Below are positions 4,181 through 53,705 of a stretch of 64,000 nucleotides of DNA, piece by piece. This stretch comes from Pseudomonadota bacterium (GTDB lineage Bacteria; Desulfobacterota; Binatia; Binatales; Binataceae): the NCBI GenBank assembly GCA_021323945.1, contig JAJPKA010000002.1, positions 354,923 to 418,922 of the forward strand. Direction: 5' to 3'. The stretch's first letter is position 1; every line of letters starts with the position of its first letter. The translations under genes were made by a program, and so were the position numbers. Below the pieces are notes generated by a model. That model saw nothing but the letters and a program-made list of their open reading frames with translations, searched no databases and was not told the origin of the DNA.

Positions 4181-4528
4181 TTGAATCCAGCACAGCCAGG
4201 ACGTCAAATGCGCCAGTTCAATGAGCAGGCAGACGCCACCACGGTCCAGGTCACCGTGGGCGAAGTATTCCAGATTTACCTTGCTGAAAACCCCACAACA
4301 GGCTTTCGATGGCGGCTGGACTGCGCGGGGGCGCCGACTTGTTCACTCATAGATGATTACTTCTCGGTACCCGGTAGGCTCCCCGGGGGGCCGGGAATTC
4401 ATCATTGGAATTTCAAGGCAGTGGCCTCAGGCAGCACAACAATTTGCCTAAGCTACGCGCGGCGTTGGCAGAATAGCGCGCCGGCGCGAACCTTCCGATT
4501 GGAAATTCGCGCCGGTGGCCAAAGTTGA
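4181..4528 (+). CDS. Chagasin-family cysteine peptidase inhibitor (MEROPS I42)
   Basis: 115 aa. Diagnostic NPTTG(F/Y)xW motif (AENPTTGFRWRL). Size and beta-rich composition typical of chagasin/ICP. No signal peptide. Confidence 0.7.
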   Translation: MNPAQPGRQMRQFNEQADATTVQVTVGEVFQIYLAENPTTGFRWRLDCAGAPTCSLIDDYFSVPGRLPGGPGIHHWNFKAVASGSTTICLSYARRWQNSAPARTFRLEIRAGGQS

Positions 4529-4536
4529 TTGGGGTT

Positions 4537-5298
4537 CTAAAGCACGAGGCGGATGGTCCAGAAATCATCGGAAAGGTTCGGGTCAGTCAAATAGGTATAT
4601 GGCATGGTGAAGTACCCAGCCATTCCCCAGTCAGTACCCCAGGAGTTGCGCACGATAAATCTCTGTTGCGCATCATCATAGCCGACCGCCAGTACTGCAT
4701 GGCCACCTATCTCCTGTTCATTCGGACCCGGCATATTCACCTGGCCAGTCTGAGCAACTTGCTGACTCTCGAAGCTTTCATATACCGAGAAACCGAAAAC
4801 GAAGGGGTAGCCGGAAGCCAGGCAGCCTTTCATCTGAATGAGATTGCGCGAGACCCGCTGGTACTGAATCACCTTGTACTTCTTAGCGTCATTGTACACT
4901 TTCTGGGGTGGTTTTTCGGCAAACTTCGCAATGTCGTAGGGCCACTCAGTTTCGGGCACGTCGCCCTGCTTTGCCACGCTTTTAATGCCATCGCGGATCA
5001 TAGCGCCGCTGTCGGTATTCACCGTGCCCTCGATGACTCGTTCGTTGTAATAGATGAACAAACGAGAGGGTACAAAATTAGGCTTGTGTTCCTTCATCCG
5101 GTCGAACTGAATCGCCCCCGCGATCGCATTTGCCGTACAACTGCCCAGCTGTCCTTGGTCATAAACCGGCGGACAAGCGGGGCGCAGGTCGACCTGAGGG
5201 GGAAGCACTCCCAGGTTGACCAAAGGCGCCGCATATAGATGGTCTCGATGGTCCGGTAGGTCCGGAATCCATCCAAAGCGTTGAATCTTGTGCCCCAT
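4537..5298 (-). CDS. Papain-family (C1A) cysteine peptidase lacking signal peptide and prodomain
   Basis: 253 aa. Catalytic Cys motif QGQLGSCTANA, His motif GGHAVLAVGYD, Asn/Trp motif NSWGTDWGMAGYF. The mature domain begins about 25 aa from the start. Confidence 0.85.
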   Translation of the reverse strand: MGHKIQRFGWIPDLPDHRDHLYAAPLVNLGVLPPQVDLRPACPPVYDQGQLGSCTANAIAGAIQFDRMKEHKPNFVPSRLFIYYNERVIEGTVNTDSGAMIRDGIKSVAKQGDVPETEWPYDIAKFAEKPPQKVYNDAKKYKVIQYQRVSRNLIQMKGCLASGYPFVFGFSVYESFESQQVAQTGQVNMPGPNEQEIGGHAVLAVGYDDAQQRFIVRNSWGTDWGMAGYFTMPYTYLTDPNLSDDFWTIRLVL

Positions 5299-5428
5299 TT
5301 TTCTCTCCTTTTCTTGTGAGTGAACTCTACGTTACGCCGAGTCAATCACTGCTTTACTCCGAGTTGATCGGCGCAACAAGGGTGCCAATCGCGCAAGTGC
5401 CAATTCCGCGTATTTATCCGCCGCTGAG

Positions 5429-5446
5429 TGCAAAGGTATCTTTGCA
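5429..5446. promoter_or_regulatory. Palindromic operator candidate TGCAAAG-gtat-CTTTGCA about 130 bp upstream of the C1 peptidase gene
   Basis: Perfect 7-bp inverted repeat in the 445-bp intergenic region. Shares its core with the 33528-33547 palindrome. Confidence 0.4.
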
Positions 5447-5742
5447 TCGGCTCGAGAATGCGAAGAGTGCATAGCAGTGAGTTGCTACACTACGCTCGCA
5501 AGTTAACAGCTCGTTGGGCCGTGCCAGCGGTGCAGCAGAAGATCGGTTACTGTTTCGAAATGAACCTCTATGCCGGGAAGGCGGAGGCTCGAATGAGAGT
5601 GGCGCCGTCCAGCAAGCAAAAAACAGCTCGTAGGCGGCCTGGACTAAAGAGTCGAACTATGGATTCATTTGCTGGCGCCGCTGCACAATTTTCAAATCTG
5701 CGAACGATGAGTGGTTGCGACAAACCGGTTTCTACCGATGAT

Positions 5743-7286: not shown

Positions 7287-9755
7287 CTAGTTGCCAGCAG
7301 CCGTCGCAGCCTGCGCGGCGGGCGCTGGCCGCAGGTAACGGGTCACAAAGGCTGGCTTCCGCCAGGCAATGTATGCAGGCAGAATCACTACGCCTGCGAT
7401 CATATTGGTCGCCATCAGGAAGATTAACAGCACGCTCATCTCATTGTGGAACAGCAAGGGAGAAAACGCCCAAGGTAAAATTCCGCCGACCATCACAGCG
7501 AAAGTGCTAAACACCGCCGCGCCGGTGGTCCGCAGAGAGGTTGTGATTGAATCCTCGATGTTGGCGCCGCCTGCAACCTCATCCCGAATCCGTGCCACGG
7601 TGTAAATGCCGTAATCAACGCCGAGACCGATACCCAGAGAGATCACCGGTATGGTGTCGATGGTAAGACCAATACCGCGTGCGTTCATGTAGACGAATGC
7701 GCCGAAATTAGCCATTACGCACGACACAATAAAGAGCGCGCCCGCAGTCAACGAGCGGAAAGTAAAAGCGCAGCAGACAAAGATGACGAGCAATACGAAA
7801 GTAATGTTGATGAAGTCGAGTTGCTTCAGGACATCATTTGCTGCCAGAAACAGTCCGGCTTCACCTCCCAGATAGCGCATTTTGACCTGACGGAGCCGTG
7901 GGTCGGGACTAATGCGACGTTCGATAAACGTTCGAATATCGTCCCGGAGACGGTTGAGTCGGGAGTAAGTGTGGTCTGGGAGCAACAATCTAATGCAGGA
8001 GCTGTTGACGTGCGGACTGTGAGCGAAAAATCGTTCCATTTCGCCTGGAGCAGTTCCGCCCAGATACATAAACCATAGATTGCCCCCGAGCTCGATGCCC
8101 ACCGAGGTTCTTTGAAACTTTGACTGCTCGAACCCGGTTGGAATCGCGATAAACTTCGGATATCCATTGTGGAACATCGAATTAAGCGGCTTGATTACCG
8201 ACGCGAAGGAGACGGTTGCCAGGACATCGCCTCGGCTCACTAAATAGGCTCCCAGATCATCGGACATCCTGAGCACCTCGGGCCCGAGCCCTGATTCGGG
8301 GTCCGGATAGTCAGGGGTACTTAGCACCACCCATCCTTCATCGGTCGGGAAGAACCTGCCGATTTCAGCCGTATCAAGATTCACTTTCGCGTCAGGGCGA
8401 TACAGGGGAGTGCCTGGCGTTTCATACCCAACGTGCGCTCGCTGACCGGAGATCGCTCCCCAAACGATAAATAGTGCGCCCGCCAGCAGTAGCGCGCTGC
8501 GGGCGAATCCAGGCGTAACCGGCAGGCCAATCAGCCAATCAGTCAACCAGCGAAACCGGCTCTTGCGCTGGCGGCGCAGCGATGTGAGCCAGCTGTCCCG
8601 AATCCGTGGTCGCGGAAGGAAGCTCATAAAGATCGGCTGAAAGACGAAGACCATGGTGAGGCTTGACGCCAACCATACAGCGCCGCCGAGCCCAATCTCC
8701 TTGAGGACCGGAATTCCACCGAAAGAGATGAAGATAATGCCGGCGATATCCGCGAGAATCGACAACAGTCCCGGCGGCAGCATTACATCGGTGGTCGTCG
8801 CACAGGCCAGGATCTTGTCGTCCAGTCGGTCGAGTTCGTCGTAATAGCGCCCCTGCCATTGGATTCCATGGCTAAGGTCGCGGGCGGTGAGAATGAAGGG
8901 GATGACCAGCATTACGGGGTCGAAGTTGTAGCCCATCAGGCTCACGAACCCGAGACCCCATAAGGCCGAGAACGAGCCGGTTACGATCGGTGCCCACCAA
9001 CTGCTGCGATGACCGAGGCTTAAATAAAGAATGATGATCATCAACGAGAGCGACGTGAAAAAAATCGCGCTGATCCGGGGGAGGTAGTAATAGCCCCAAC
9101 CCGAAATAACCGGCTGACCCGAAACATAGATCTCGGTGTTCTGGTCCGAGTACCGCTCAACAATCTTCTGGATCTTGTCGAACAGATCACGATAGTCGAG
9201 CGCACCCTCGTTAAAGCTCGCTGTGATTAGGGCGCCTTTGTTGTCGGCGGTTACCAGCCCGGCTACCGGCTCGCGATGAGCAAAGACATTGTGCCTGAGT
9301 TCATCGAGCTGCTGTTGATTTTGCGGCACCTTCGGGTACATGTAGCAGCGCGTGATAATCGCGCCGGGCACCGCACTGGCGAAGGTCACGCGGTAGGAGG
9401 CCAGTGAAAAGATCTCGTTGTGATCCACCCCGGGCAGGATATTAACTGCCCGGGTGATGTCTTCGATCTTCTGCAGTGTGGAATAGTTGAAAATATCTCC
9501 ACGCTTCACCCGCAGCATCACCGCCAGCGTCTGAGCACCGCCGTAGTGGGTATGGTATTGGCGATACAGGAGCGTGTTGGGGTGATTGCTGGGAAAGAAA
9601 TTCTCGAACCGAGTCGCAATTCTCACGTGCACCGCCCAGTACGCCATGAATATCGTTACCGCGATCAGAAGGAATCCGATTGGCACGCGGAACTGGAGGA
9701 TGCTTCGGCCAATGCCGAGCTCGTTTCTTAGGCCGAGTGAGTTCATCTGCACCAC
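7287..9755 (-). CDS. MMPL/RND-superfamily membrane transporter (12 TM, two large periplasmic loops), possibly HpnN-like
   Basis: 822 aa. TM1 + loop + TM2-6, then TM7 + loop + TM8-12 topology. About 55-60% identical over long stretches to the ORF at 39789-42311. Confidence 0.8.
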   Translation of the reverse strand: MVQMNSLGLRNELGIGRSILQFRVPIGFLLIAVTIFMAYWAVHVRIATRFENFFPSNHPNTLLYRQYHTHYGGAQTLAVMLRVKRGDIFNYSTLQKIEDITRAVNILPGVDHNEIFSLASYRVTFASAVPGAIITRCYMYPKVPQNQQQLDELRHNVFAHREPVAGLVTADNKGALITASFNEGALDYRDLFDKIQKIVERYSDQNTEIYVSGQPVISGWGYYYLPRISAIFFTSLSLMIIILYLSLGHRSSWWAPIVTGSFSALWGLGFVSLMGYNFDPVMLVIPFILTARDLSHGIQWQGRYYDELDRLDDKILACATTTDVMLPPGLLSILADIAGIIFISFGGIPVLKEIGLGGAVWLASSLTMVFVFQPIFMSFLPRPRIRDSWLTSLRRQRKSRFRWLTDWLIGLPVTPGFARSALLLAGALFIVWGAISGQRAHVGYETPGTPLYRPDAKVNLDTAEIGRFFPTDEGWVVLSTPDYPDPESGLGPEVLRMSDDLGAYLVSRGDVLATVSFASVIKPLNSMFHNGYPKFIAIPTGFEQSKFQRTSVGIELGGNLWFMYLGGTAPGEMERFFAHSPHVNSSCIRLLLPDHTYSRLNRLRDDIRTFIERRISPDPRLRQVKMRYLGGEAGLFLAANDVLKQLDFINITFVLLVIFVCCAFTFRSLTAGALFIVSCVMANFGAFVYMNARGIGLTIDTIPVISLGIGLGVDYGIYTVARIRDEVAGGANIEDSITTSLRTTGAAVFSTFAVMVGGILPWAFSPLLFHNEMSVLLIFLMATNMIAGVVILPAYIAWRKPAFVTRYLRPAPAAQAATAAGN

Positions 9756-14417: not shown

Positions 14418-14950
14418 GTTTGCATCTCCCCTTGTCTGAACCTACGCTCCAGTTGTGCCGGAACGAGTCGGCACGAATTCTCTCGCTGCCGTGCCACCCT
14501 ATGGCATTTCAATATCGCCGCCTTTGGTTGCCGCCGCCGGCGGCCTCCCGTCACGGGGATATTGAGCCTGTAAATAGTTGCGGCAGTTAACTTACCTTGA
14601 GGTTGTCCCGGTAAGGGGAAATTGTCAAACGGAAAAGGGCAGTTGCGATTGAAAGCAGAAGCCCATCGACGTAAAAAAGGTTGGCAGAGCTTGCTTCGAA
14701 CCTCGGTGCTGCCCTGAAGTTAGCCGACCGGAAAGAAGCAATAAGCGGGTACGACGGGTCGCGGGTTACCAGCGCGGCCAGGCGATCGAGACCGTTGATG
14801 AATCGAGTGCCGCCACTCCCACCTCATCCCCGCAGAAACGGGGGCAACTCTCAGGCCAGAAGCTCGGGGTTGGCTTCGACGCAGCAATTCCCGACAAAGT
14901 CCGCCTGGCCGCTTGGGGCCGAGGCACCACGCCTCCGGAGCTGAGACCGA

Positions 14951-30793: not shown

Positions 30794-31070
30794 AAGTTAT
30801 TTTAAATGCCGACTTATTCCGCCTCGTCAACCGGAATATCACCCCATGTGCGCTCATATGATGCGCCGCGGCTGGCGTGCGCGGCCCGAACCTGACAATG
30901 GTCTGCTGCAAACAAACCCTCGGTCATGAAGCCGAAAAAAGCTAGACCCGCATCGCAAGGGAAAGTTGGGAAGAGAAGCGAGGCAAATGTCAGGAACGCA
31001 TGCCCGTGGCGCTCGCGAATTGTCGAGCTCGCTGTGGATGTTTGGTTTCAGAGCGACGCCCCGGATGTCT

Positions 31071-32228: not shown

Positions 32229-33515
32229 CTAGCCCCAGTTGTTCCGGGCCCACAACACGAGGTCGATCATAGGTGATCCAGCTGCAGCGACATTATTGTC
32301 TTCGGGCCCATTCCACAAGGGAAAATCCCATTCCTGTTCCTCGGCGGAGGCGACGCCGACCAGCGACGGATAGTCCTCGCCGTCCCACCACCCGAAAAAC
32401 GGGCCGCCAGAGTCGCCGGCGGTCACATCGCCGTTGTCGGTCTCGAGCTCCATCGCAGCGCCATCTTCGTCGTCATCGTGGAAGCTGATCCCTCCTTGCC
32501 ACGAGGGCCGCTCGCCTTTAGCGATGGCGCTTGCATAACCCACGAAGCTCCAGTAGTTACCGTCGTTCCAACTGTCGTCGTAGGTCTCGCCGCCGAACCA
32601 TCCGAGGAAGTCACCCAGCGGATCGATAAGATGCAGCACCGCAAAGTCCCAAGCGGGTCGGTCCACATCGGGGGCGGGCTCCTGGTAGTAGGCCGCCGCT
32701 GCGTCGACGTAGGAGTAGACATTCGGACCCAGCGTTGAGACGCCATTGAAGTAGGCCGGCACAAACTGGATCATTCCCGGGTTTGCACCCCACGGCACCG
32801 CGTGCGAAGCTGTCAGCACGATATCGCGCGACACCAGCACGCCAGTTGCTCTCCACGACGGCACGAAACTGTACGGGTCGTTGTAAGAAAAGATTCGGCC
32901 AATGCATTGCCATGGATAGCCGGTGGGGTAAAAGGGCTGGCGTACGTCGTTGCCGAAAATATACAGCGGTCGCACACGTTTGCCGTTCACCCGCCGCATG
33001 GTTGGGCGAGGCAGACGCGCTGCCATTTTGGGATGGTAAATTATGTCGGCCCACTCGGGAATTTTGGGCGGCGGAAGCGGCAGGGTGGGTGAGCTGACCT
33101 TGAGCTCGTCCCGTTTGAGGCGCCGGGTTTCCGTGAGCGGCAGACCCCGCATCAGCTTGTGTTCGCGACAAATCTGAAAAGATCGCATGCCGTTTACACT
33201 GCTGATTTCGTGGATGATCGTGTCGGTGTTTACCGAGCCTGCTACTGTGAAGCTGTTGGCGGACTTCAGCTTATGCAGTGCGGTCGGCAAAGGTTGGTGT
33301 TTGATAATGTTCTCCAGCCTGAGGATGGCGTCCGCGCGCATCGGCGGCGGCACCTTTGTCCCCGTGTTTACCTGGGTTTTGCTCATTGCTCTTTCCTCCG
33401 ACCGTGACCAGCGGCCTCGCACTTCTTCCACTCGAAGGGGGAGCAACGCGGGTGCCATTGTCGCGCCCTTGATCTGTGGGGCTACGTGGCCAAGAGCTGA
33501 TGATCTCCATTGCAA
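32229..33515 (-). CDS. Trypsin-like (S1/chymotrypsin-fold) serine peptidase with ~200-aa N-terminal extension, no signal peptide
   Basis: Catalytic triad motifs in order: His (VLTASHAV), Asp (DFAVLHL), Ser (GDSGGPFF). The start codon is uncertain (TTG at 33515, or internal Met at residues 19 or 44). Confidence 0.75.
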   Translation of the reverse strand: MQWRSSALGHVAPQIKGATMAPALLPLRVEEVRGRWSRSEERAMSKTQVNTGTKVPPPMRADAILRLENIIKHQPLPTALHKLKSANSFTVAGSVNTDTIIHEISSVNGMRSFQICREHKLMRGLPLTETRRLKRDELKVSSPTLPLPPPKIPEWADIIYHPKMAARLPRPTMRRVNGKRVRPLYIFGNDVRQPFYPTGYPWQCIGRIFSYNDPYSFVPSWRATGVLVSRDIVLTASHAVPWGANPGMIQFVPAYFNGVSTLGPNVYSYVDAAAAYYQEPAPDVDRPAWDFAVLHLIDPLGDFLGWFGGETYDDSWNDGNYWSFVGYASAIAKGERPSWQGGISFHDDDEDGAAMELETDNGDVTAGDSGGPFFGWWDGEDYPSLVGVASAEEQEWDFPLWNGPEDNNVAAAGSPMIDLVLWARNNWG

Positions 33516-33527
33516 ACGCAGTTAGCA

Positions 33528-33547
33528 CTGCAAATTGTGGTTTGCAG
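33528..33547. promoter_or_regulatory. Palindromic operator candidate CTGCAAA-ttgtgg-TTTGCAG upstream of the S1 peptidase gene (additional TGCAAA half-site at 33511-33516)
   Basis: Perfect 7-bp inverted repeat seen directly. Same TGCAAA/TTTGCA core as the palindrome upstream of the C1 peptidase gene. Confidence 0.4.
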
Positions 33548-34008
33548 GGTTGCTCGAGGTCGCTTCGTCGTTGGCAGGCAATCTCCGCTCTTCCGCTTCC
33601 AATCCAACGTTACACTGAGCTGATTTGTGCACCTGGAGTTGCGCGCCGTTTGAATTTGAGCATCGCAGCGACGCAGCGGGTGCCTCACCTTCAAAGAAAC
33701 GGTTTGATCAGAAAGCACAAGCGGCCGCCGAGGCACCTCTCCGCTAACCGCCGGTCTAGCTCGAGCCGCAGGCTCGAAGCTGTCTCGGCTTGGCTAACGT
33801 GATTCAGGCCGAGCGGCATCGCCCGATACCGATCGCCTGCACTAACCCCGCCGCGCCAAACCGAGAGACACTAGCTCCGACCTCTCTGGACTGAGTCGAG
33901 CCTGGGACGAAAGAACTTTCTCAGAGGTCTTTTGTGGTCTGCCAAAAATGGTTCTCGTCCCGAGCGGTTCCGAGCATCGGAGTCCGCTCCCTCAGCGAAT
34001 TGCGGTTA

Positions 34009-34854
34009 TCAACGCAGTTTGCTGACCAGCGATGCCCGCCTATCCAGGGCTGCCAGTGCTTTGTCCCGTGGTTCGCTGGCCACGCCCAGGACCAGATGCG
34101 AAAAGCCCAGATCGATCATTCGTTTACAAGAATCCTCATTGGGGGTGATTGCGGCCACCGCCAGCTCGATTGTGTCGAAGCGCCGGCCCGCTCGATCGGC
34201 AGCCTCCCGCAGTGCGCGCAAGCGTCGGTTCAGAGCCTCATAATCCGCCGCAACCGGGTACCAGCCATCGCAGTAATCGACAACTCGTTCGAGAGCTTTC
34301 ATCGACAGCGAGCCGAGCCAGACTGGTGGCCCGCCAGGACGCACCGGCTTGGGCCAGCACCAGATCGGATCGAAGTTTACGAACTCGCCATGGAATTCGG
34401 CTACGTCCTGCGTCCAGATGCGGCGCATTGCCTTGACGCGTTCGCCGGTTACGCGCCAGCGCTTTTTAAACGGCACGCCGTGATTTTCCATTTCCTCGGC
34501 GTTCCATCCAGCACCGATTCCCAGGATCAGGCGCCCATTGGAGAGTGCGTCCAGTGACGCGGCCTGCTTGGCGAGAACGATGGGATCGTGCTCTGTGACC
34601 AGGCATACGCCGGCGCCAATTTTTATGCGGGTCGTTGCCATCGCCGCCGCCGTCATCGCTACGAACAGATCGTGGATGTGTGAATACTCGGTCGGCAGGT
34701 CGCCGCCCATCGGGAAAGGAGTTTTACGGCTGGTTGGAATATGGGTGTGCTCGGGAAAAAACACTGAGTCGAAACCGCGCTCCTCGGCAGCGCGAGCGAA
34801 TTCATCGGGCCGAATCGAGTAATCAGTGGCGAAGAGCGAAACTCCAAAATTCAT
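34009..34854 (-). CDS. LLM-class (luciferase-like) flavin/F420-dependent oxidoreductase
   Basis: MNFGVSLFATDYSIRPDEFARAAEERGFDSVFFPEHTHIP... is typical of the LLM family. Start set at the internal Met. Confidence 0.8.
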   Translation of the reverse strand: MNFGVSLFATDYSIRPDEFARAAEERGFDSVFFPEHTHIPTSRKTPFPMGGDLPTEYSHIHDLFVAMTAAAMATTRIKIGAGVCLVTEHDPIVLAKQAASLDALSNGRLILGIGAGWNAEEMENHGVPFKKRWRVTGERVKAMRRIWTQDVAEFHGEFVNFDPIWCWPKPVRPGGPPVWLGSLSMKALERVVDYCDGWYPVAADYEALNRRLRALREAADRAGRRFDTIELAVAAITPNEDSCKRMIDLGFSHLVLGVASEPRDKALAALDRRASLVSKLR

Positions 34855-34961
34855 AAGGTCACCTCGTCCGGATCCAGGTAATGGTGAATGTAATCTAGAT
34901 GGTCGACGACCTTTTTTGAAACCGGAAAAACGCCGATAGGCTGGCCGTAAAATAAGACGGG

Positions 34962-35756
34962 ATGCAGCTGTTCGACCGTAAGCGGCGTCATTTAACAAAG
35001 CCCCGCAAGTGGTGTTTTACTGGTTGGATGATGCCAGCGGCGAGGGGTCTCACAATCACCGAACGTATCAACCGATTGGACTGGCAGTCGATTCTCGAGG
35101 CGGTCAATGCCGAAGGTTTTGCCACCGTGCCCCCGCTGCTTTCTGCGCAGGAATGCTCCGAGCTGCGGCTCATGTACGGCGTCAGAGAGCGCTTTCGGAG
35201 TCGCGTCGAGATGGCGCGATTTCGGTTCGGGGTGGGCGAGTACAAGTATTTTGCTGCTCCGTTGCCACCCATCGTTGCTGAATTACGCTGCTCGCTGTAC
35301 CGCTGCGTTGTGCCGGTTGCCAACCATTGGATGAAGGTATTGCGGAGCGGAATTAGATTTCCCCCGACGCTCGATGATTTCCTCGACCAATGCCGTCGCA
35401 GCGGCCAGAACAAGCCGACCCCGCTTCTGCTGCGCTACGAAGCCGGCGGTTATAACTGCCTGCACCAGGACCTCTATGGTGAAGTCGTCTTTCCCCTCCA
35501 GTTTACGTTCATGCTGAGCCGTCGGAACGTCGATTACAGTGGTGGCGAGTTTCTAATGCTTGAACAGCGGCCGCGCGCGCAATCGAAATGCGAAGCGATT
35601 TCGCTGGACCTCGGTGCGGCGGTTCTCTTCGCAACTCGCTACAGGCCAGTCAGAGGGACTCGCGGATTCCATCGGGTTACCTTGCGGCATGGGTTAAGTC
35701 GCGTTCATAGTGGCCAGCGTTTCGCACTGGGAATAATTTTTCACGACGCGAAGTAG
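34962..35756 (+). CDS. 2OG-Fe(II) oxygenase superfamily protein (prolyl-hydroxylase-like)
   Basis: HxD (LHQDLYGE) and a distal His (RVHSG), PF13640-like. Start may be the internal Met at about 35028. Confidence 0.65.
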   Translation: MQLFDRKRRHLTKPRKWCFTGWMMPAARGLTITERINRLDWQSILEAVNAEGFATVPPLLSAQECSELRLMYGVRERFRSRVEMARFRFGVGEYKYFAAPLPPIVAELRCSLYRCVVPVANHWMKVLRSGIRFPPTLDDFLDQCRRSGQNKPTPLLLRYEAGGYNCLHQDLYGEVVFPLQFTFMLSRRNVDYSGGEFLMLEQRPRAQSKCEAISLDLGAAVLFATRYRPVRGTRGFHRVTLRHGLSRVHSGQRFALGIIFHDAK

Positions 35757-39788: not shown

Positions 39789-42311
39789 TTGGCGGGCAGT
39801 GGAAGGATTGATAGAAAACGGTCACGCTTTTACAGCCTGAGCCCCGGGGGAGCTAATTCTGCGGCGAGGATTGAGAGTATGGGTCTCGACACGGAGGTAA
39901 GACCTCAGACGTTTGGCAGATACATTCTTGCCCATCGCAAACCACTGGCGGCCATTTTGATCGCAATCACCGCGTTTATGGCCTACTGGGCGACGCGTGT
40001 GCCAGTGGCGACGCGCTTCGAGGATCTGTTTCCCAGCAAGGATCCCAACGTCCTGCTGTATCGAGAATATCGGCGGCAATATGGGGGAGCGCAGACTCTG
40101 GTGCTGCTGCTGCGCGTACGTGACGGCGATATTTTCAACATGAAAACCCTGCGGGCGATTCAGGACCTGACTCGGCAAGTCGATATCTTGCCCGGTGTCA
40201 ACCATAACGAGGTGTTTTCGCTCGCCTCTTATCGGCTGGTTTATGCGCGCGCGATCCCTGGCGCTTTGGTGTCGCGTCCCTACATGTATCCCAAAATTCC
40301 CCAGAACCAGGCCGAACTCGAAGACTTGAAGAAAACGGTCATGGCCCATCGTGAGGAATTGGCTGGCTATGTTACGCCGGATTTTAAAGGGGCCCTGATC
40401 GTTGCCGCATTCAACGAACGGGGGCTCGATTACAAAGCGCTGTTCGATGCAGTGCAGTCACTAATCGCTAAATACCAGGATGCAAACACCACAATCTACG
40501 CGAGCGGTGCCGCGATGTTTGCGGCCTGGGGCTATCATTATTTGCCGCGAATTTCGCTCATCTTTCTGATTTCCGTGGCGCTGATGGTGCTCATTCTATA
40601 CCTGGCTCTTGGCCGCCGGAGCACCTGGTGGGCGCCGATTGTCACCGGGCTCTGCTCGACAATATGGGGGCTCGGGTTCGTTGGTTTGATGCGATTCAAC
40701 TTCGATCCGGTGATGTTGGTTATACCATTTATTCTAACCGCCCGAGACCTGAGCCACGGGATCCAATGGCATGGCCGCTACTACGACGAGCTCGATCGGA
40801 ACGCTGACAAGATGGCGGCCTGCGCAGCCACCGCCGACCTGATGCTGCGGCCGGGGTTGTTGGCGGTAGTGGCGAACATCGCCGGAGTCATATTTCTGGT
40901 TATCGGCAATATTCCTCTGCTCCGGCAGATCGGCTACGGAGGTGCGGTCTGGCTCGGCGCCAGTTTGGCAATGGTGTTTGTGTTCCAGCCTATCCTCATG
41001 AGTTATCTGCCGCGGCCACAGATTTATCCATCGCGCCAGAAGCAGGGCGAAGGCCTTCGCGGCTCCTTCTTGGGTTCAGTTATGGCGCGGTTCGAGCAGA
41101 TACCCGTGACGCACGGGGTAATGCGGACGGCATTGGTCGTTGCGGCAGCGGCATTAATGATCGCGGGTGTCGTCGCCAGCCAGCATGTGCCGATAGGGTA
41201 CCAGACCCTGGGAACACCGCTTTACCGCGAGAACGCCAAGATCAACCAGGACACGGCTGAAATTGGCAGGTTCGTGCCCACCAATATGGCGTGGGTGGTG
41301 ATTGAGGCTCCGAATTTCCCCAAGCCGGAAAACCCGATTTCGGTCAAGACCCTTCGAATGGCCGATGATCTGGCAACCTACCTGCTCGATCGGGGAGACG
41401 TCCTGGCGGTGCTGGGTTTCGCTGAGATCGCATCCAAACCCATGAACATGTTGCTTCACAATGGCGATCCGAAATACTATGCGCTGCCCGATACCGATAC
41501 CTTGAGCGGGACCTTGTGGTTCTTCTTTTTCAGCGGCAGTGCCCCGGATGAGGTCTACACCTTCTTTGGCCGGTATCCTAGTGTCACAAGTATGAGTGTG
41601 CGGCTCCTGCTTGCAGATCATACTTATCGTCGGCTACAGCGCCTGCATGCTGATTTGGACAATTTCGTCAAAAGTCGCGTGATCAACGATCCGGACCTCA
41701 GTCAGGTGAAAGTGCGCTACGTCGGCGGTGACGCGGGCCTTTACCTGGCCAGTGACAATGTTGTGCAGCGGCTCAATACAATAAATCTGGCGTTGACTCT
41801 GGCTGTCATTTTTCTCACGACCACATTGATCTTTCGCTCGCTTACGGCCGGGCTGCTGCTGGTAATTGCCGCCGTAATGGCTAACTTCGGTGCCTTCATT
41901 TACATGAATCGCGAGATCATAGGTCTGACCATCGACACCATCCCTGTCATCTCGCTAGGTATCGGCCTCGGCATCAACTATACAATCTACACCTTGGGAA
42001 GGATTCGCGATGAGGTAGCCTCCGGGGTCGTGCTCGATACTGCGATTACCACCGCCTTGCATACGACCGGCTGGTGGGTATTTGCCACATTTGCGGTGAT
42101 GGTAGGTGGAATAATCCCATGGGCGTTTTCCCCGCTCTTATTCCATAACGAAATGAGCGTACTGTTGATTCTGTTGATGGTGGCGAACCTGCTGGTTGGC
42201 TTGTTGATCCTCCCCAGCTATATCGCATGGCAGCGCCCGCGCTTTCTGACTGATTATTCCGTCTCGATCGGATTACCAGGCCGGGAGGCAGCGGGACGGG
42301 CGGTCTCGTAG
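39789..42311 (+). CDS. MMPL/RND-superfamily membrane transporter (paralog of 7287-9755)
   Basis: 840 aa, collinear with the first copy (…FEDLFPSKDPNVLLYREYRRQYGGAQTL… vs …FENFFPSNHPNTLLYRQYHTHYGGAQTL…). 16 bp after the glycosidase stop. Confidence 0.8.
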   Translation: MAGSGRIDRKRSRFYSLSPGGANSAARIESMGLDTEVRPQTFGRYILAHRKPLAAILIAITAFMAYWATRVPVATRFEDLFPSKDPNVLLYREYRRQYGGAQTLVLLLRVRDGDIFNMKTLRAIQDLTRQVDILPGVNHNEVFSLASYRLVYARAIPGALVSRPYMYPKIPQNQAELEDLKKTVMAHREELAGYVTPDFKGALIVAAFNERGLDYKALFDAVQSLIAKYQDANTTIYASGAAMFAAWGYHYLPRISLIFLISVALMVLILYLALGRRSTWWAPIVTGLCSTIWGLGFVGLMRFNFDPVMLVIPFILTARDLSHGIQWHGRYYDELDRNADKMAACAATADLMLRPGLLAVVANIAGVIFLVIGNIPLLRQIGYGGAVWLGASLAMVFVFQPILMSYLPRPQIYPSRQKQGEGLRGSFLGSVMARFEQIPVTHGVMRTALVVAAAALMIAGVVASQHVPIGYQTLGTPLYRENAKINQDTAEIGRFVPTNMAWVVIEAPNFPKPENPISVKTLRMADDLATYLLDRGDVLAVLGFAEIASKPMNMLLHNGDPKYYALPDTDTLSGTLWFFFFSGSAPDEVYTFFGRYPSVTSMSVRLLLADHTYRRLQRLHADLDNFVKSRVINDPDLSQVKVRYVGGDAGLYLASDNVVQRLNTINLALTLAVIFLTTTLIFRSLTAGLLLVIAAVMANFGAFIYMNREIIGLTIDTIPVISLGIGLGINYTIYTLGRIRDEVASGVVLDTAITTALHTTGWWVFATFAVMVGGIIPWAFSPLLFHNEMSVLLILLMVANLLVGLLILPSYIAWQRPRFLTDYSVSIGLPGREAAGRAVS

Positions 42312-42862: not shown

Positions 42863-43747
42863 TCATAGCTTAAGCGCGGGTTCAACCCACTTGCGCGCCA
42901 ATTCTTCGATTAGTTGCCTGACTTCCGCCTCGTTCGACATTGAGCGTTGAAACACCGGTGTGAGGTATAGTTCGTCAACGCCGGCATCGCGATATCGGGC
43001 GAGGTCATCGGGAGTCGCCTCAACCGTGGGAGAAACTGCGAATTCGAACTTTTGTTGGTCGCGCCCGTTGGCTGCGAGCAATTCACGAAGTCGGTTGATC
43101 GCCTGGGAGGTTTCGTCAGGCGTTAGATTGAAGCCGCACCAGCCGTCGCCATAGGACGCGGCGCGCTTGAGCGCTGCCTCAGTCTGGCCGCCTACCAGCA
43201 CCCGCAGTCCTGCGCCTTGAGTCGGTTTTGGATAGCTAACCACGCCCTCAAAGTTGACGAATTCCGCGCTATAACTGCGCCCATTTCCCCAGACGCATCG
43301 CATCGCCTCCACGTACTCCCTGGTGCGCTGCGCTCGGCGCTCCCATGGAATTCCGAGTGCGTCGAATTCTTCTCGGAGCCATCCAACGCCGATGCCGAGC
43401 GCCAGGCGTCCACCACTCAAAAAATCAAGGCTGGCGCAAATCTTGGCGAGCAACAGCGGATTGTACTCTGGAACGAGACAGATTCCGGTTGCGAGCCGAA
43501 TGCGTTTGGTATGCGCTGCCGCATAAGTGAGCGCCACGAAGGGGTTGAGCAGCGCAACGTCAGTACGGATGGGAAGGCTGTGTCCCCGTGAGTAGGGATA
43601 TTGAGAGGCAAACCGCTCCAGGAAGACAACATGCTCCGGTGCCCAGAGCGTGGCGAAGTGCAGCCGCTCGGCATGAGCGGCTACGGCCGTGATCAAATCG
43701 GGCCGCGCGAGATTGCCAATCCCGATGGCAAAGAAGCCGATCCTCAT
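42863..43747 (-). CDS. LLM-class flavin/F420-dependent oxidoreductase
   Basis: MRIGFFAIGIGN...ATLWAPEHVVF… luciferase-like TIM barrel. An alternative start lies 21 bp upstream. Confidence 0.8.
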   Translation of the reverse strand: MRIGFFAIGIGNLARPDLITAVAAHAERLHFATLWAPEHVVFLERFASQYPYSRGHSLPIRTDVALLNPFVALTYAAAHTKRIRLATGICLVPEYNPLLLAKICASLDFLSGGRLALGIGVGWLREEFDALGIPWERRAQRTREYVEAMRCVWGNGRSYSAEFVNFEGVVSYPKPTQGAGLRVLVGGQTEAALKRAASYGDGWCGFNLTPDETSQAINRLRELLAANGRDQQKFEFAVSPTVEATPDDLARYRDAGVDELYLTPVFQRSMSNEAEVRQLIEELARKWVEPALKL

Positions 43748-43772
43748 GGTTCTTCCCCTGGTTCGCAAACTT

Positions 43773-50874: not shown

Positions 50875-52047
50875 ATGGCGATTCAGGAAGGCGATGAGCT
50901 GTGGCGAGAAATCGTCGACAGCCTGACCGTTGGGATCGTTGCGGTCTCGCCCGAGCGCCAGGTGATCGCAATAAACTCGGCTGCAGAGACTCTGCTCGGG
51001 GTCTCACGTCTGCGGCGAACCCGGTTTGATTCCGTATTTCGACGCAACCAATGGCTGGCCGCCATGGTGGACAGGTGTCTCACTTCGGGTCAAAGCCTGC
51101 ATTATCCGGAAACCCCACTGGTACTCGGCCAACGTGAGGCACTGGTGACCGCAGCCGTGTCACCCCTGACGACCCAGACTGGAGAGACCAGCGGCGTGGT
51201 AATCTTGCTGCAAGACCTTTCCTATCAGCAGACGGCCGAACCCGGTCTCCGCGCCGAGCCTGAGGCGTTAAAGTTGTCGTCAGTTGGCCTTGCGCATGAG
51301 CTTAAAAATCCGTTGACCGGGATCAAGGGTGCCGCCGAACTGATCGCCGCAATGCTGCCCACGGATCCGCGAGCTCAGCAATATTGCCGACTTATCCTCG
51401 ATGGAGTGCAACGAATCACCTCATTACTTGAAGAGGCTTTAGCTGTGTCAGGACCCTTGCGGCTGCGTACCGAGCCGGTGAATATTCATCAAGTCCTGCA
51501 TCAAGCACTCAGAATGGCGGGCGCATATCCGGTTCCTCCCCAGGGGATTGCGATAGAACAGTTATTTGACCCCAGTTTGCCCGAGGTTATGGGTGATCCT
51601 GTCGCCCTTGAGCGCGTCTTTCTCAATTTGATCCGCAACGGGCTCGAGGCAATCGCTGCCGTTTCCGACGCGTCCGCCAAAGACACCGGCTCGGCAGTTG
51701 AACGGCCTGCCCGGCCACTGCGCAAGCTTATCCTAAAGACCGGCTTGGAGCCTCAACTACGGATGAACGCGCAGGGGCGTAGGGTGCAATTTCTGCGCGT
51801 TGAGATCAGCGACTCGGGGAAGGGCATGGCACCGGAGCAGTTCCAACAGCTCTTTACCCCTTTTTTTACTACCAAGCCCTCAGGTACAGGCCTCGGACTC
51901 GTGCTTAGTCGCCGGATCGTCGAGCAGCACGGCGGCAGGTTATGGGCGCAGCTGGGTGGTACCGGTCTTAGGGCGCCGAATGCGCGGGGCGAACAGCCGG
52001 CAGCCGGCATGACGTTCTGTGTTACTTTACCTATACGTTCAGATTAG
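50875..52047 (+). CDS. Sensor histidine kinase (PAS-HisKA-HATPase; NtrB/AtoS-like)
   Basis: H-box HELKNPLTGIKGAAELI, N/G1/G2 boxes (ISDSGKGMAPE…GTGLGL). No TM segments, so likely cytoplasmic. Confidence 0.8.
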   Translation: MAIQEGDELWREIVDSLTVGIVAVSPERQVIAINSAAETLLGVSRLRRTRFDSVFRRNQWLAAMVDRCLTSGQSLHYPETPLVLGQREALVTAAVSPLTTQTGETSGVVILLQDLSYQQTAEPGLRAEPEALKLSSVGLAHELKNPLTGIKGAAELIAAMLPTDPRAQQYCRLILDGVQRITSLLEEALAVSGPLRLRTEPVNIHQVLHQALRMAGAYPVPPQGIAIEQLFDPSLPEVMGDPVALERVFLNLIRNGLEAIAAVSDASAKDTGSAVERPARPLRKLILKTGLEPQLRMNAQGRRVQFLRVEISDSGKGMAPEQFQQLFTPFFTTKPSGTGLGLVLSRRIVEQHGGRLWAQLGGTGLRAPNARGEQPAAGMTFCVTLPIRSD

Positions 52048-52187
52048 ACAGCGAAGCCCGCATTCGCATCGGACGTGGTCAAGACCCGGGAGGTAGCGTT
52101 CAGGCAGAGCTTGCACCATATCGGATATTGCCCATAATCTGCGTTGACTTCGGTTAGATGTGCTGAACCGGTTATACTGGCAACGAT

Positions 52188-53705
52188 ATGAGTTGCGCCC
52201 CATCCAACGACTCGCTGCGAGCCGGCGAATCTAGACCACTGGTTCTTATTGCCGACGACGACCCCGGAATACGGTTGGTCTTGCGGCATCGGCTGGACGC
52301 TGCGGGGTACGAAGTCGAAGAGACGGCTGATAGCGCCACCACACTCCGGGCCCTCATCAGCAATCGTTACGATGTTGCCCTTGTCGACATCATGATGCCG
52401 GGTGCCGGCGGCCTCGAGATACTCTCCAAGGCTCGAGATGAGGGGACACGCACGCTGGTAATCGTGATTACCGCGGCCAACACGATGAACAACGCAGTTG
52501 AGGCGATGAAGCGGGGCGCTCACGATTATCTGACCAAGCCTTTCGAGAACCTTGATCTGGTCGCTGCCGCGGTCGGGCGGGCAATCGAGGTGGCAGGGCT
52601 CGAGAAGTTCGTGCGCGGGCTGGCCGGTTCTGCCACTGATTTCTCACGTCTGCGCGAGGAGGTGAACCGTCAGCTCGTCGGCGGGGAAATCATTGGGCGC
52701 AGTCCCGCCATGCAGGAGGTCTATAAGCTCATTGGGCGCGTCGTAACCAATGAGGCCACCGTGCTGGTGTGCGGTGAGAGTGGCACCGGCAAAGAGTTGG
52801 TAGCCCGCGCGATTCATTTCAAGTCGCCCCGCTGGCGAGGTCCGTTTGTTGCCGTCAACTGCTCGGCGATCCCGGCAGGTCTGCTCGAAAGCGAACTTTT
52901 TGGCCACGAACGGGGTGCCTTTACCGGGGCTAACGAGCGGCGAGCGGGCAAATTCGAACAGGCTGCTGGCGGCACTCTCTTCCTGGATGAGATCGGCGAC
53001 TTGCCGCTCGAGTTGCAACCCAAACTGCTGCGGGTACTGCAAGAACGGGAATTTTCGCGGGTCGGTGGTTTGGAGGTTTTGCACGCCCAGGCACGGATTA
53101 TAGCCGCTACCAATCATGATCTCGAAGCAGCAGTTGCGGCAGGTAGGTTCCGTGAAGATCTATACTTTCGCTTGCGTGTGATTCCTATCAACCTGCCGCC
53201 TTTACGACACCGCCGCGAGGATATTCCCGAACTAACCGACTACTTTATATCCAAGGCTGTGCGTGAAATGGGAGCGCACGCACGTTACGTCGCTCCTGAA
53301 GCTCGTGCCAAACTTCAGGCCTACGACTGGCCGGGCAATGTCCGCGAACTGGAGAATACCATCTTGCGCGCCGCGCTACTTACACCGAGCAATACCATCA
53401 GGGCCGAAGACATCGAGCTGCGGCACAGTCCGCTCCATTCGCGCTCAGAGCATCAGGCGGCCCAAGCTTCACTAACTGACCTGATTGGCCAGCGGATAAA
53501 TGAGATGTTGGAAAACAACAGTACCGAGCCGCGTGATCTCTACCAGAAGCTGATCGGTGAACTGGAGCGCCCGCTGATTGAAATGACGCTGCGGCGCGCT
53601 CGCGGTAATCAAGTTCACGCAGCTCGTATCCTGGGGCTCAATCGCAACACGCTGCGCAAGAAACTGGTTGAACACGGCATTCCGATCACCAAGCTCCCCA
53701 TATAA
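52188..53705 (+). CDS. Sigma-54-dependent Fis-family response regulator (NtrC-like: REC + AAA+ + HTH)
   Basis: REC with phospho-acceptor Asp. Walker A GESGTGKE, GAFTGA sigma-54 contact motif, C-terminal Fis-type HTH. Confidence 0.9.
   Translation: MSCAPSNDSLRAGESRPLVLIADDDPGIRLVLRHRLDAAGYEVEETADSATTLRALISNRYDVALVDIMMPGAGGLEILSKARDEGTRTLVIVITAANTMNNAVEAMKRGAHDYLTKPFENLDLVAAAVGRAIEVAGLEKFVRGLAGSATDFSRLREEVNRQLVGGEIIGRSPAMQEVYKLIGRVVTNEATVLVCGESGTGKELVARAIHFKSPRWRGPFVAVNCSAIPAGLLESELFGHERGAFTGANERRAGKFEQAAGGTLFLDEIGDLPLELQPKLLRVLQEREFSRVGGLEVLHAQARIIAATNHDLEAAVAAGRFREDLYFRLRVIPINLPPLRHRREDIPELTDYFISKAVREMGAHARYVAPEARAKLQAYDWPGNVRELENTILRAALLTPSNTIRAEDIELRHSPLHSRSEHQAAQASLTDLIGQRINEMLENNSTEPRDLYQKLIGELERPLIEMTLRRARGNQVHAARILGLNRNTLRKKLVEHGIPITKLPI

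Follow-up and report, generated by a model that had tools for sequence, protein, structure and literature searches.

Two peptidase genes that lie 28 kb apart in the genome of a member of the Binatota are each preceded by a palindrome with TGCAAA and TTTGCA half-sites, which raises the question of what these palindromes do and whether one regulator reads both. Here, the whole 64-kb stretch of DNA analysed (64,000 nucleotides; "the window") was examined together with related loci. We consider, at a probability of about 0.8, that both palindromes serve as enhancers (upstream activator sequences) of sigma-54-dependent promoters of the peptidase genes. The genes concerned are as follows.

4537-5298, minus strand: C1 (papain-family) cysteine peptidase gene, 253 aa (translation; Pfam PF00112 [Peptidase_C1], E 1.3e-17)
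4181-4528, plus strand: chagasin-type (I42) peptidase inhibitor gene (translation; PF09394, assigned in the source contig and at orthologous loci)
32229-33386, minus strand: S1 (trypsin/V8-like) serine peptidase gene, 385 aa (translation; Pfam PF00089 [Trypsin], with an exact-sequence cluster and a JGI cluster name)

Both peptidase genes are monocistronic, and the C1 gene is convergent with the I42 inhibitor gene. Catalytic motifs are retained in both peptidases, including TASHAV and GDSGGP in the S1 enzyme, and no signal peptide was found in the C1 peptidase, the S1 peptidase, or the I42 inhibitor. The S1 gene starts with an ATG at 33386 after a GGAGGA ribosome-binding site, both of which are conserved. 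PADLOC returned no defense-system family for the peptidases or their neighbors. Homologues of the C1 peptidase with 60 to 74% identity occur in very distant phyla (hosts include Betaproteobacteria, Terriglobia, Sinomonas, Nocardia, Ktedonobacteria, Planctomycetes, and the archaea Nitrosocosmicus and Thermoplasmata), a spread across phyla that points to extensive horizontal transfer. Elsewhere, the window carries two luciferase-like monooxygenase genes (34009-34998 and 42863-43768), two large MMPL-family transporter genes (7287-9755 and 39789-42311), and many oxidoreductase and amidohydrolase genes.

Three sites were delimited upstream of the peptidase genes.

5429-5446, no strand: predicted upstream activator sequence of the C1 peptidase promoter, TGCAAAGGTATCTTTGCA, i.e., TGCAAAG-N4-CTTTGCA (equally TGCAAA-N6-TTTGCA)
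33529-33546, no strand: predicted primary upstream activator sequence of the S1 peptidase promoter, TGCAAA-N6-TTTGCA (as first drawn, CTGCAAATTGTGGTTTGCAG, 33528-33547)
33511-33527, no strand: secondary, weaker 17-bp site abutting the primary S1 site, TGCAAA-N5-TTAGCA on the plus strand and TGCTAA-N5-TTTGCA on the coding strand

A preliminary description of this DNA had placed TGCAAAGGTATCTTTGCA at 5429-5446, CTGCAAATTGTGGTTTGCAG at 33528-33547, and an additional TGCAAA at 33511-33516, and all three were recovered at those positions; the last, described as an extra half-site, is part of the weaker 17-bp site. Its suggestion that different spacers could mean distinct regulators came from a misparsing of the arms, as the hexamers are spaced by N6 in both palindromes and the C1 copy has one additional complementary pair (7-N4-7). 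The C1 promoter has one clear site and the S1 promoter a primary site plus the abutting weaker one. A possible extra C1 copy with 3 mismatches lies at 5459-5476, 30 bp upstream of the C1 palindrome.

In the 64-kb window, TGCAAA-N2-8-TTTGCA was matched twice against 0.03 matches expected; with the spacer fixed at N6, the expectation fell to 0.005, and a count of 2 was reached in none of 1,000 dinucleotide shuffles. Allowing up to two mismatches in TGCAAA-N6-TTTGCA added a single further site in the window, which is intragenic, and the lone hexamer TGCAAA is rarer there than expected (20 observed versus 37.8). The hexamer that had been noted next to the 12696-14417 gene was located at 14419-14424. 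The accompanying claim that the core is otherwise missing from intergenic DNA held for the palindrome, of which there is no further copy, but not for isolated hexamers, which occur at 30907, 56796, and 57004, outside the open reading frames taken as genes.

Between each palindrome and its peptidase gene lies a predicted promoter.

5373-5387, minus strand: predicted sigma-54 promoter of the C1 peptidase gene, TGGCACCCTTGTTGC, with -24 GG and -12 GC; predicted transcription start, ~5361
33443-33457, minus strand: predicted sigma-54 promoter of the S1 peptidase gene, TGGCACCCGCGTTGC; predicted transcription start, ~33431

These are the only two exact matches to TGGCAC-N5-TTGC in the 64 kb (5387-5373 and 33457-33443; 0.19 expected), and both are on the coding strand of the peptidase genes, the minus strand. 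They begin 89 nt (C1) and 71 nt (S1) before the start codons, their GG and GC doublets are exactly 10 nt apart, and they lie downstream of the palindromes at gaps of 41 nt (C1) and 71 nt (S1). The composite of palindrome, 41 to 71 nt, and promoter has 2 matches in the window versus 0.00 in shuffles. The S1 palindrome had previously been assigned to the leader of its gene; its position is upstream of the predicted promoter, outside the transcribed leader.

With the C of the -12 GC set as position -12, the site centers fall at about -76 (C1), -88 (S1 secondary), and -106 (S1 primary) from the predicted starts. Measured to the -24 GG, the centers are 52 bp (C1), 63.5 bp (S1 secondary), and 82 bp (S1 primary) away, distances that would amount to about 5, 6, and 8 turns of the helix. 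The coordinates (49 to 52, 63.5, and 82 bp from the -24 GG) suggest sites roughly on a single helical face. Neither intergenic region yielded a sigma-70-like promoter (promoter scan), a terminator-like site (simple terminator scan), an Rfam match, or a long inverted repeat.

Other elements were seen in the same intergenic regions. A second TGGCAC (5397-5402, minus strand) sits 15 nt upstream of the C1 -24 element without a matching -12 element; it reads CGGCAC in the sister strain and is lost in more distant lineages. The start of the predicted C1 5' untranslated region (5320-5362, minus strand) holds a lineage-conserved block, AGTAAAGC-N3-5-GATTGAC, for which neither a consensus RNA fold nor an Rfam match was found. 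On the S1 side, a GC-rich imperfect inverted repeat, AGCTCGAGCC-GC-AGGCTCGAAGCT (33758-33781), lies downstream of the luciferase-like monooxygenase gene at 34009-34998 and is kept in the sister strain; it may be a terminator or insulator between the monooxygenase gene and the S1 promoter and was not called by the terminator scan because it has no T-run.

Conservation of the C1 elements was followed in five syntenic lineages including the window, with coding DNA 74 to 84% identical to that of the window and a shared gene order of NMO, C1, I42, and Mrp/NUBPL-type ATPase. Their elements, on the coding strand, are listed by locus.

Window: palindrome TGCAAAGATACCTTTGCA, gap of 41 nt, promoter TGGCACCCTTGTTGC
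L075-78: palindrome TGCAAAGAAGGATTTGCA, gap of 40 nt, promoter TGGCACCCTTGTTGC
L083: palindrome TGCTAAGCCTTATTAGCA, gap of 40 nt, promoter TGGCACCCTTGTTGC
L081/82: palindrome TGATAAGCCAGATTAGCA, gap of 40 nt, promoter TGGCATCCTGCTTGC
L069: palindrome TGCAAAGCATTATTGGCA, gap of 38 nt, promoter TGGCACTATTGTTGC

Pairwise comparison of the five gives mean identities of 85% (half-sites) and 96% (sigma-54 core), against 25% for the four bases at the center of the spacer and 30 to 37% for the flanks, and the gap from palindrome to promoter stays within 38 to 41 nt in all five. Conserved half-sites amid drifting spacer and flanks are, on the evidence of this alignment, the signature of a protein-binding site. 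In L083, both half-sites carry a symmetric change (TGCTAA...TTAGCA), as expected of a site read by a dimer.

The S1 layout of palindrome and promoter is the same in three lineages. In the sister strain (L079/L080), the palindrome is CGCAAACAACAATTTGCA (CGCAAA-N6-TTTGCA) and the promoter is identical to that of the window; in L072, whose protein is 81% identical, TGCAAGTCCTGGTTTGCA (TGCAAG-N6-TTTGCA) precedes the promoter TGGTACGTACTTTGC (TGGTAC-N5-TTTGC, one mismatch), with positions that match those of the window when measured from the true ATG. The secondary S1 site (33511-33527) is partially conserved in L079 and L072. Relative to the window, L079/L080 has a 77-bp insertion directly upstream of the S1 palindrome, and the segment from palindrome to promoter is intact. 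Pooling 16 half-sites gave T15 G16 C15 (A11/T4/C1) A16 A15, i.e., TGCWAA. The shuffles and this conservation exclude chance as the origin of the palindromes. Promoter and palindrome sequences, rarity, fixed geometry, and selective conservation in orthologous loci are direct observations on the DNA, and all of the supporting lineages are fairly close relatives.

Farther out, the elements disappear. In named genomes (Betaproteobacteria, Terriglobia, Actinobacteria, Archaea, and others), the 500 nt upstream of the gene contained neither element at any of 49 loci with a C1 homologue, so the gene moves without this regulatory DNA; these loci are uninformative on the motif itself. An S1 homologue at 71% identity (L073/L074) has neither palindrome nor sigma-54 promoter. 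With both elements missing from the more distant homologues of either gene, the wiring is confined to a narrow clade. A nonsyntenic C1 homologue (L071, 77% identity) has a perfect TGGCACCACACTTGC 197 nt upstream of the gene (L071:2804-2818), and its upstream region contains no TGCWAA palindrome and no other short inverted repeat; this C1 gene may be sigma-54-controlled via a different activator.

From this arrangement, we infer that transcription depends on sigma-54 and starts at the positions given, that an activator binds, and that the two genes are co-regulated. In the mechanism proposed, a dimeric enhancer-binding protein with a helix-turn-helix would recognize TGCWAA-N6-TTWGCA at sites whose centers precede the -24 element by ~50 bp (C1) or by ~82 and 63 bp (S1); once activated, it would oligomerize and use ATP to remodel sigma-54 holoenzyme at TGGCAC-N5-TTGC, and the two monocistronic peptidase genes would be turned on together. 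Enhancer-binding proteins as a rule have dyad-symmetric sites no more than about 100 to 150 nt upstream of the sigma-54 promoter, a range into which the gaps here fall. Many act through two or three sites, and the C1 promoter has one clear site. The host is taken to use a sigma-54 system because a GAFTGA-bearing activator is encoded in the window. Known sigma-54 systems with upstream activator sequences (glnAp2/NtrC; Desulfovibrio vulgaris) share the promoter core TGGCAC-N5-TTGC, a palindrome <100 nt upstream, and a GAFTGA activator in the host, but differ in that the targets here are two signal-peptide-less peptidases of an uncultured phylum, with one clear C1 site. Most D. vulgaris activator sites are <100 nt from the sigma-54 promoter (PMC4641369), and the geometry in the window is consistent with those distances.

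Which activator would bind was considered from the sites and from the proteins encoded nearby. A tentative candidate, on the doubtful side, is a one-component enhancer-binding protein of the TyrR/PhhR/GcsR type encoded outside the window, which would switch on the peptidases in response to an amino acid. TyrR and GcsR are amino-acid-sensing activators; the TyrR box (TGTAAA-N6-TTTACA) and the GcsR site (TGTAACG-N4-CGTTCCG) are 18-bp palindromes; in Pseudomonas, the GcsR site precedes a sigma-54 promoter, and GcsR acts through three tandem sites (PMC4894688). The window sites share their 18-bp architecture of 7-bp arms and a 4-nt spacer, keep G2 and C17, and have an inner arm of AAA/TTT, differing by one base per half-site (PMC4894688). 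Amino-acid-responsive control of peptidases would also be physiologically coherent. Against this candidate, no TyrR-like activator gene (ACT, PAS, AAA+, and HTH domains) was found in the 64-kb window, and the sites depart from the TyrR consensus: spacing and 5 of 6 positions of the half-site agree, but 15 of 16 half-sites carry C instead of T at position 3. GcsR differs further in its three tandem sites.

Also to be weighed is a two-component pair encoded in the window itself.

50875-52047, plus strand: histidine kinase gene (PAS, HisKA, and HATPase domains), preceding the candidate activator gene as its partner
52188-53705, plus strand: sigma-54 enhancer-binding protein gene, the only one in the window (REC, AAA+ with GAFTGA, and Fis-type HTH_8 domains); candidate activator

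That this NtrB/NtrC-like pair (50875-53705) activates the promoters, placing the peptidases in a nitrogen-scavenging response, we judge unlikely, at lower odds than a TyrR-like protein. It encodes the only enhancer-binding protein in the 64 kb, with the motifs GESGTGKE, ESELFG, and GAFTGA, and JGI gives relatives of this protein the name GlnG. Its named relatives all come from Candidatus Binataceae or "Deltaproteobacteria" metagenome-assembled genomes, on which the placement of the host in the Binatota (Binataceae) is based. The best NCBIfam match is the ntrC equivalog TIGR01818, but its 527.3 bits fall short of the curated cutoff (558.6), and the kinase scores far lower than the cutoff for NtrB (142.6 versus 240). 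No nitrogen-assimilation genes adjoin the pair, no copies of the motif were found near the activator gene in the window, and the gene is 19 and 47 kb from its would-be targets. The DNA-binding domain is Fis-like: the C-terminal 90 aa align over the whole Fis fold (E 2e-14, versus 1e-3 for the NtrC domain 1NTC), and the recognition helix reads NRNTLRKKL versus NRGTLRKKL in Fis. Characterized Fis and NtrC sites are of odd length (15 to 17 bp), and the enterobacterial NtrC site is TGCACC-N5-GGTGCA. The window sites have its outer TGCA...TGCA in common, and the secondary S1 site has the NtrC-type length of 17 bp, but the primary palindromes are 18 bp, with inner AA/TT in place of CC/GG, and thus diverge from the NtrC consensus; their 18-bp geometry fits the TyrR and GcsR boxes better. 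The rest of the probability, beyond these two candidates, goes to another activator.

The same composite was sought in metagenome contigs (gap range, 41 to 71 nt). The exact pattern gave 18 matches at about 11 loci, none orthologous to the window, and no locus of this lineage and no further regulon members were returned; the lineage was missed partly because the gap at C1 in the sister strain is 40 nt, outside the 41 to 71 nt range, and the S1 site of that strain begins with CGCAAA. Downstream genes encode FlgK, FlgL/flagellin, FlgJ, a type II/IV secretion ATPase, a PilZ-HlyD protein, and an M24 peptidase. These are typical sigma-54 targets of other bacteria and lend qualitative support, from a collection that carries no chance expectation, to TGCAAA-N6-TTTGCA as a recurring enhancer type. 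An activator gene adjoins the motif at only one match (L065, a response-regulator activator beside the PilZ-HlyD gene); it was considered as a guide to the cognate activator by adjacency and rejected, as its helix-turn-helix differs from that of the activator in the window. Four flagellar promoters (FlgL/flagellin-like, FlgJ-like, and FlgK; L057, L061, L064, and L067) from one low-GC community (Ga0268262) have in common an extended module, with TGCAAACA-N4-TGTTTGCA at its end, that precedes sigma-54 promoters, probably the regulon of a flagellar activator with the same palindrome type. The literature that could be searched contained no sigma-54 system with TGCWAA half-sites at N6 spacing.

Two further readings dispense with an enhancer. 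The preliminary description proposed that the two peptidase genes share an operator for one dimeric transcription factor. Its notion of a common site for one dimeric factor is well supported by the rarity of the palindromes, their identical half-sites and spacing, and their conservation in orthologues; the term "operator" is not, given palindromes 41 and 71 nt upstream of perfect, conserved sigma-54 promoters and no sigma-70 promoter. Arms of 6 to 7 bp are typical of many helix-turn-helix regulators, and a common conserved site would suit any dimeric factor, such as a conventional repressor or activator at sigma-70 promoters. Neither intergenic region has a sigma-70-like promoter, however; the sigma-54 promoters follow at a fixed 38 to 41 nt (C1) or ~71 nt (S1), and a site 50 to 80 bp upstream of the -24 element has no overlap with the polymerase footprint, unlike a repressor operator, which would overlap it. 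Since neither a sigma-70 promoter nor a terminator, an Rfam element, or a conserved hairpin was found, upstream activator sequences are the best reading of the sites, and an operator role is improbable. That the palindromes act as nucleic acid hairpins (to end or process the transcripts of upstream genes, or as part of a structured RNA) is hardly credible: a 7-bp stem (-7.5 kcal/mol) is possible in the window C1 copy and the symmetric change in L083 preserves pairing, but the arms carry 2 mismatches in L081 and 2 in L069, where the best folds (-1.4 and -3.1 kcal/mol, respectively) bypass them, the stems of the S1 copies are AT-rich and weak (~-3.5 kcal/mol), and there is no T-run, terminator call, or Rfam match.

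If the palindromes are upstream activator sequences, a more speculative extension, which we hold to be quite improbable, is that the signal-peptide-less peptidases and a cytoplasmic chagasin-type inhibitor form a sigma-54-triggered program of intracellular proteolysis under an undescribed, Binatota-specific enhancer-binding protein for TGCWAA-N6-TTWGCA, with two foreign protease genes captured into one enhancer regulon. Such a program could be, for example, a starvation or stress self-digestion module restrained by the inhibitor.

The mechanism proposed is standard and the control is ordinary in kind for bacteria, so that the value of the finding is incremental. Its interest comes from the uncultured host phylum, a motif for which the literature search gave no sigma-54 context, and mobile, apparently cytoplasmic proteases that would have been captured in one regulon. 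The C1 gene occurs in many phyla (60 to 74% identity) and the sigma-54 promoter and palindrome only in the clade of the window, a pattern that suggests regulatory capture. For the Binatota, a phylum without cultured members, the papain-like and trypsin-like peptidase genes would constitute a concrete, testable candidate regulon, and TGCWAA-N6-TTWGCA can seed a genome-wide search for its other members and the assignment of its activator.
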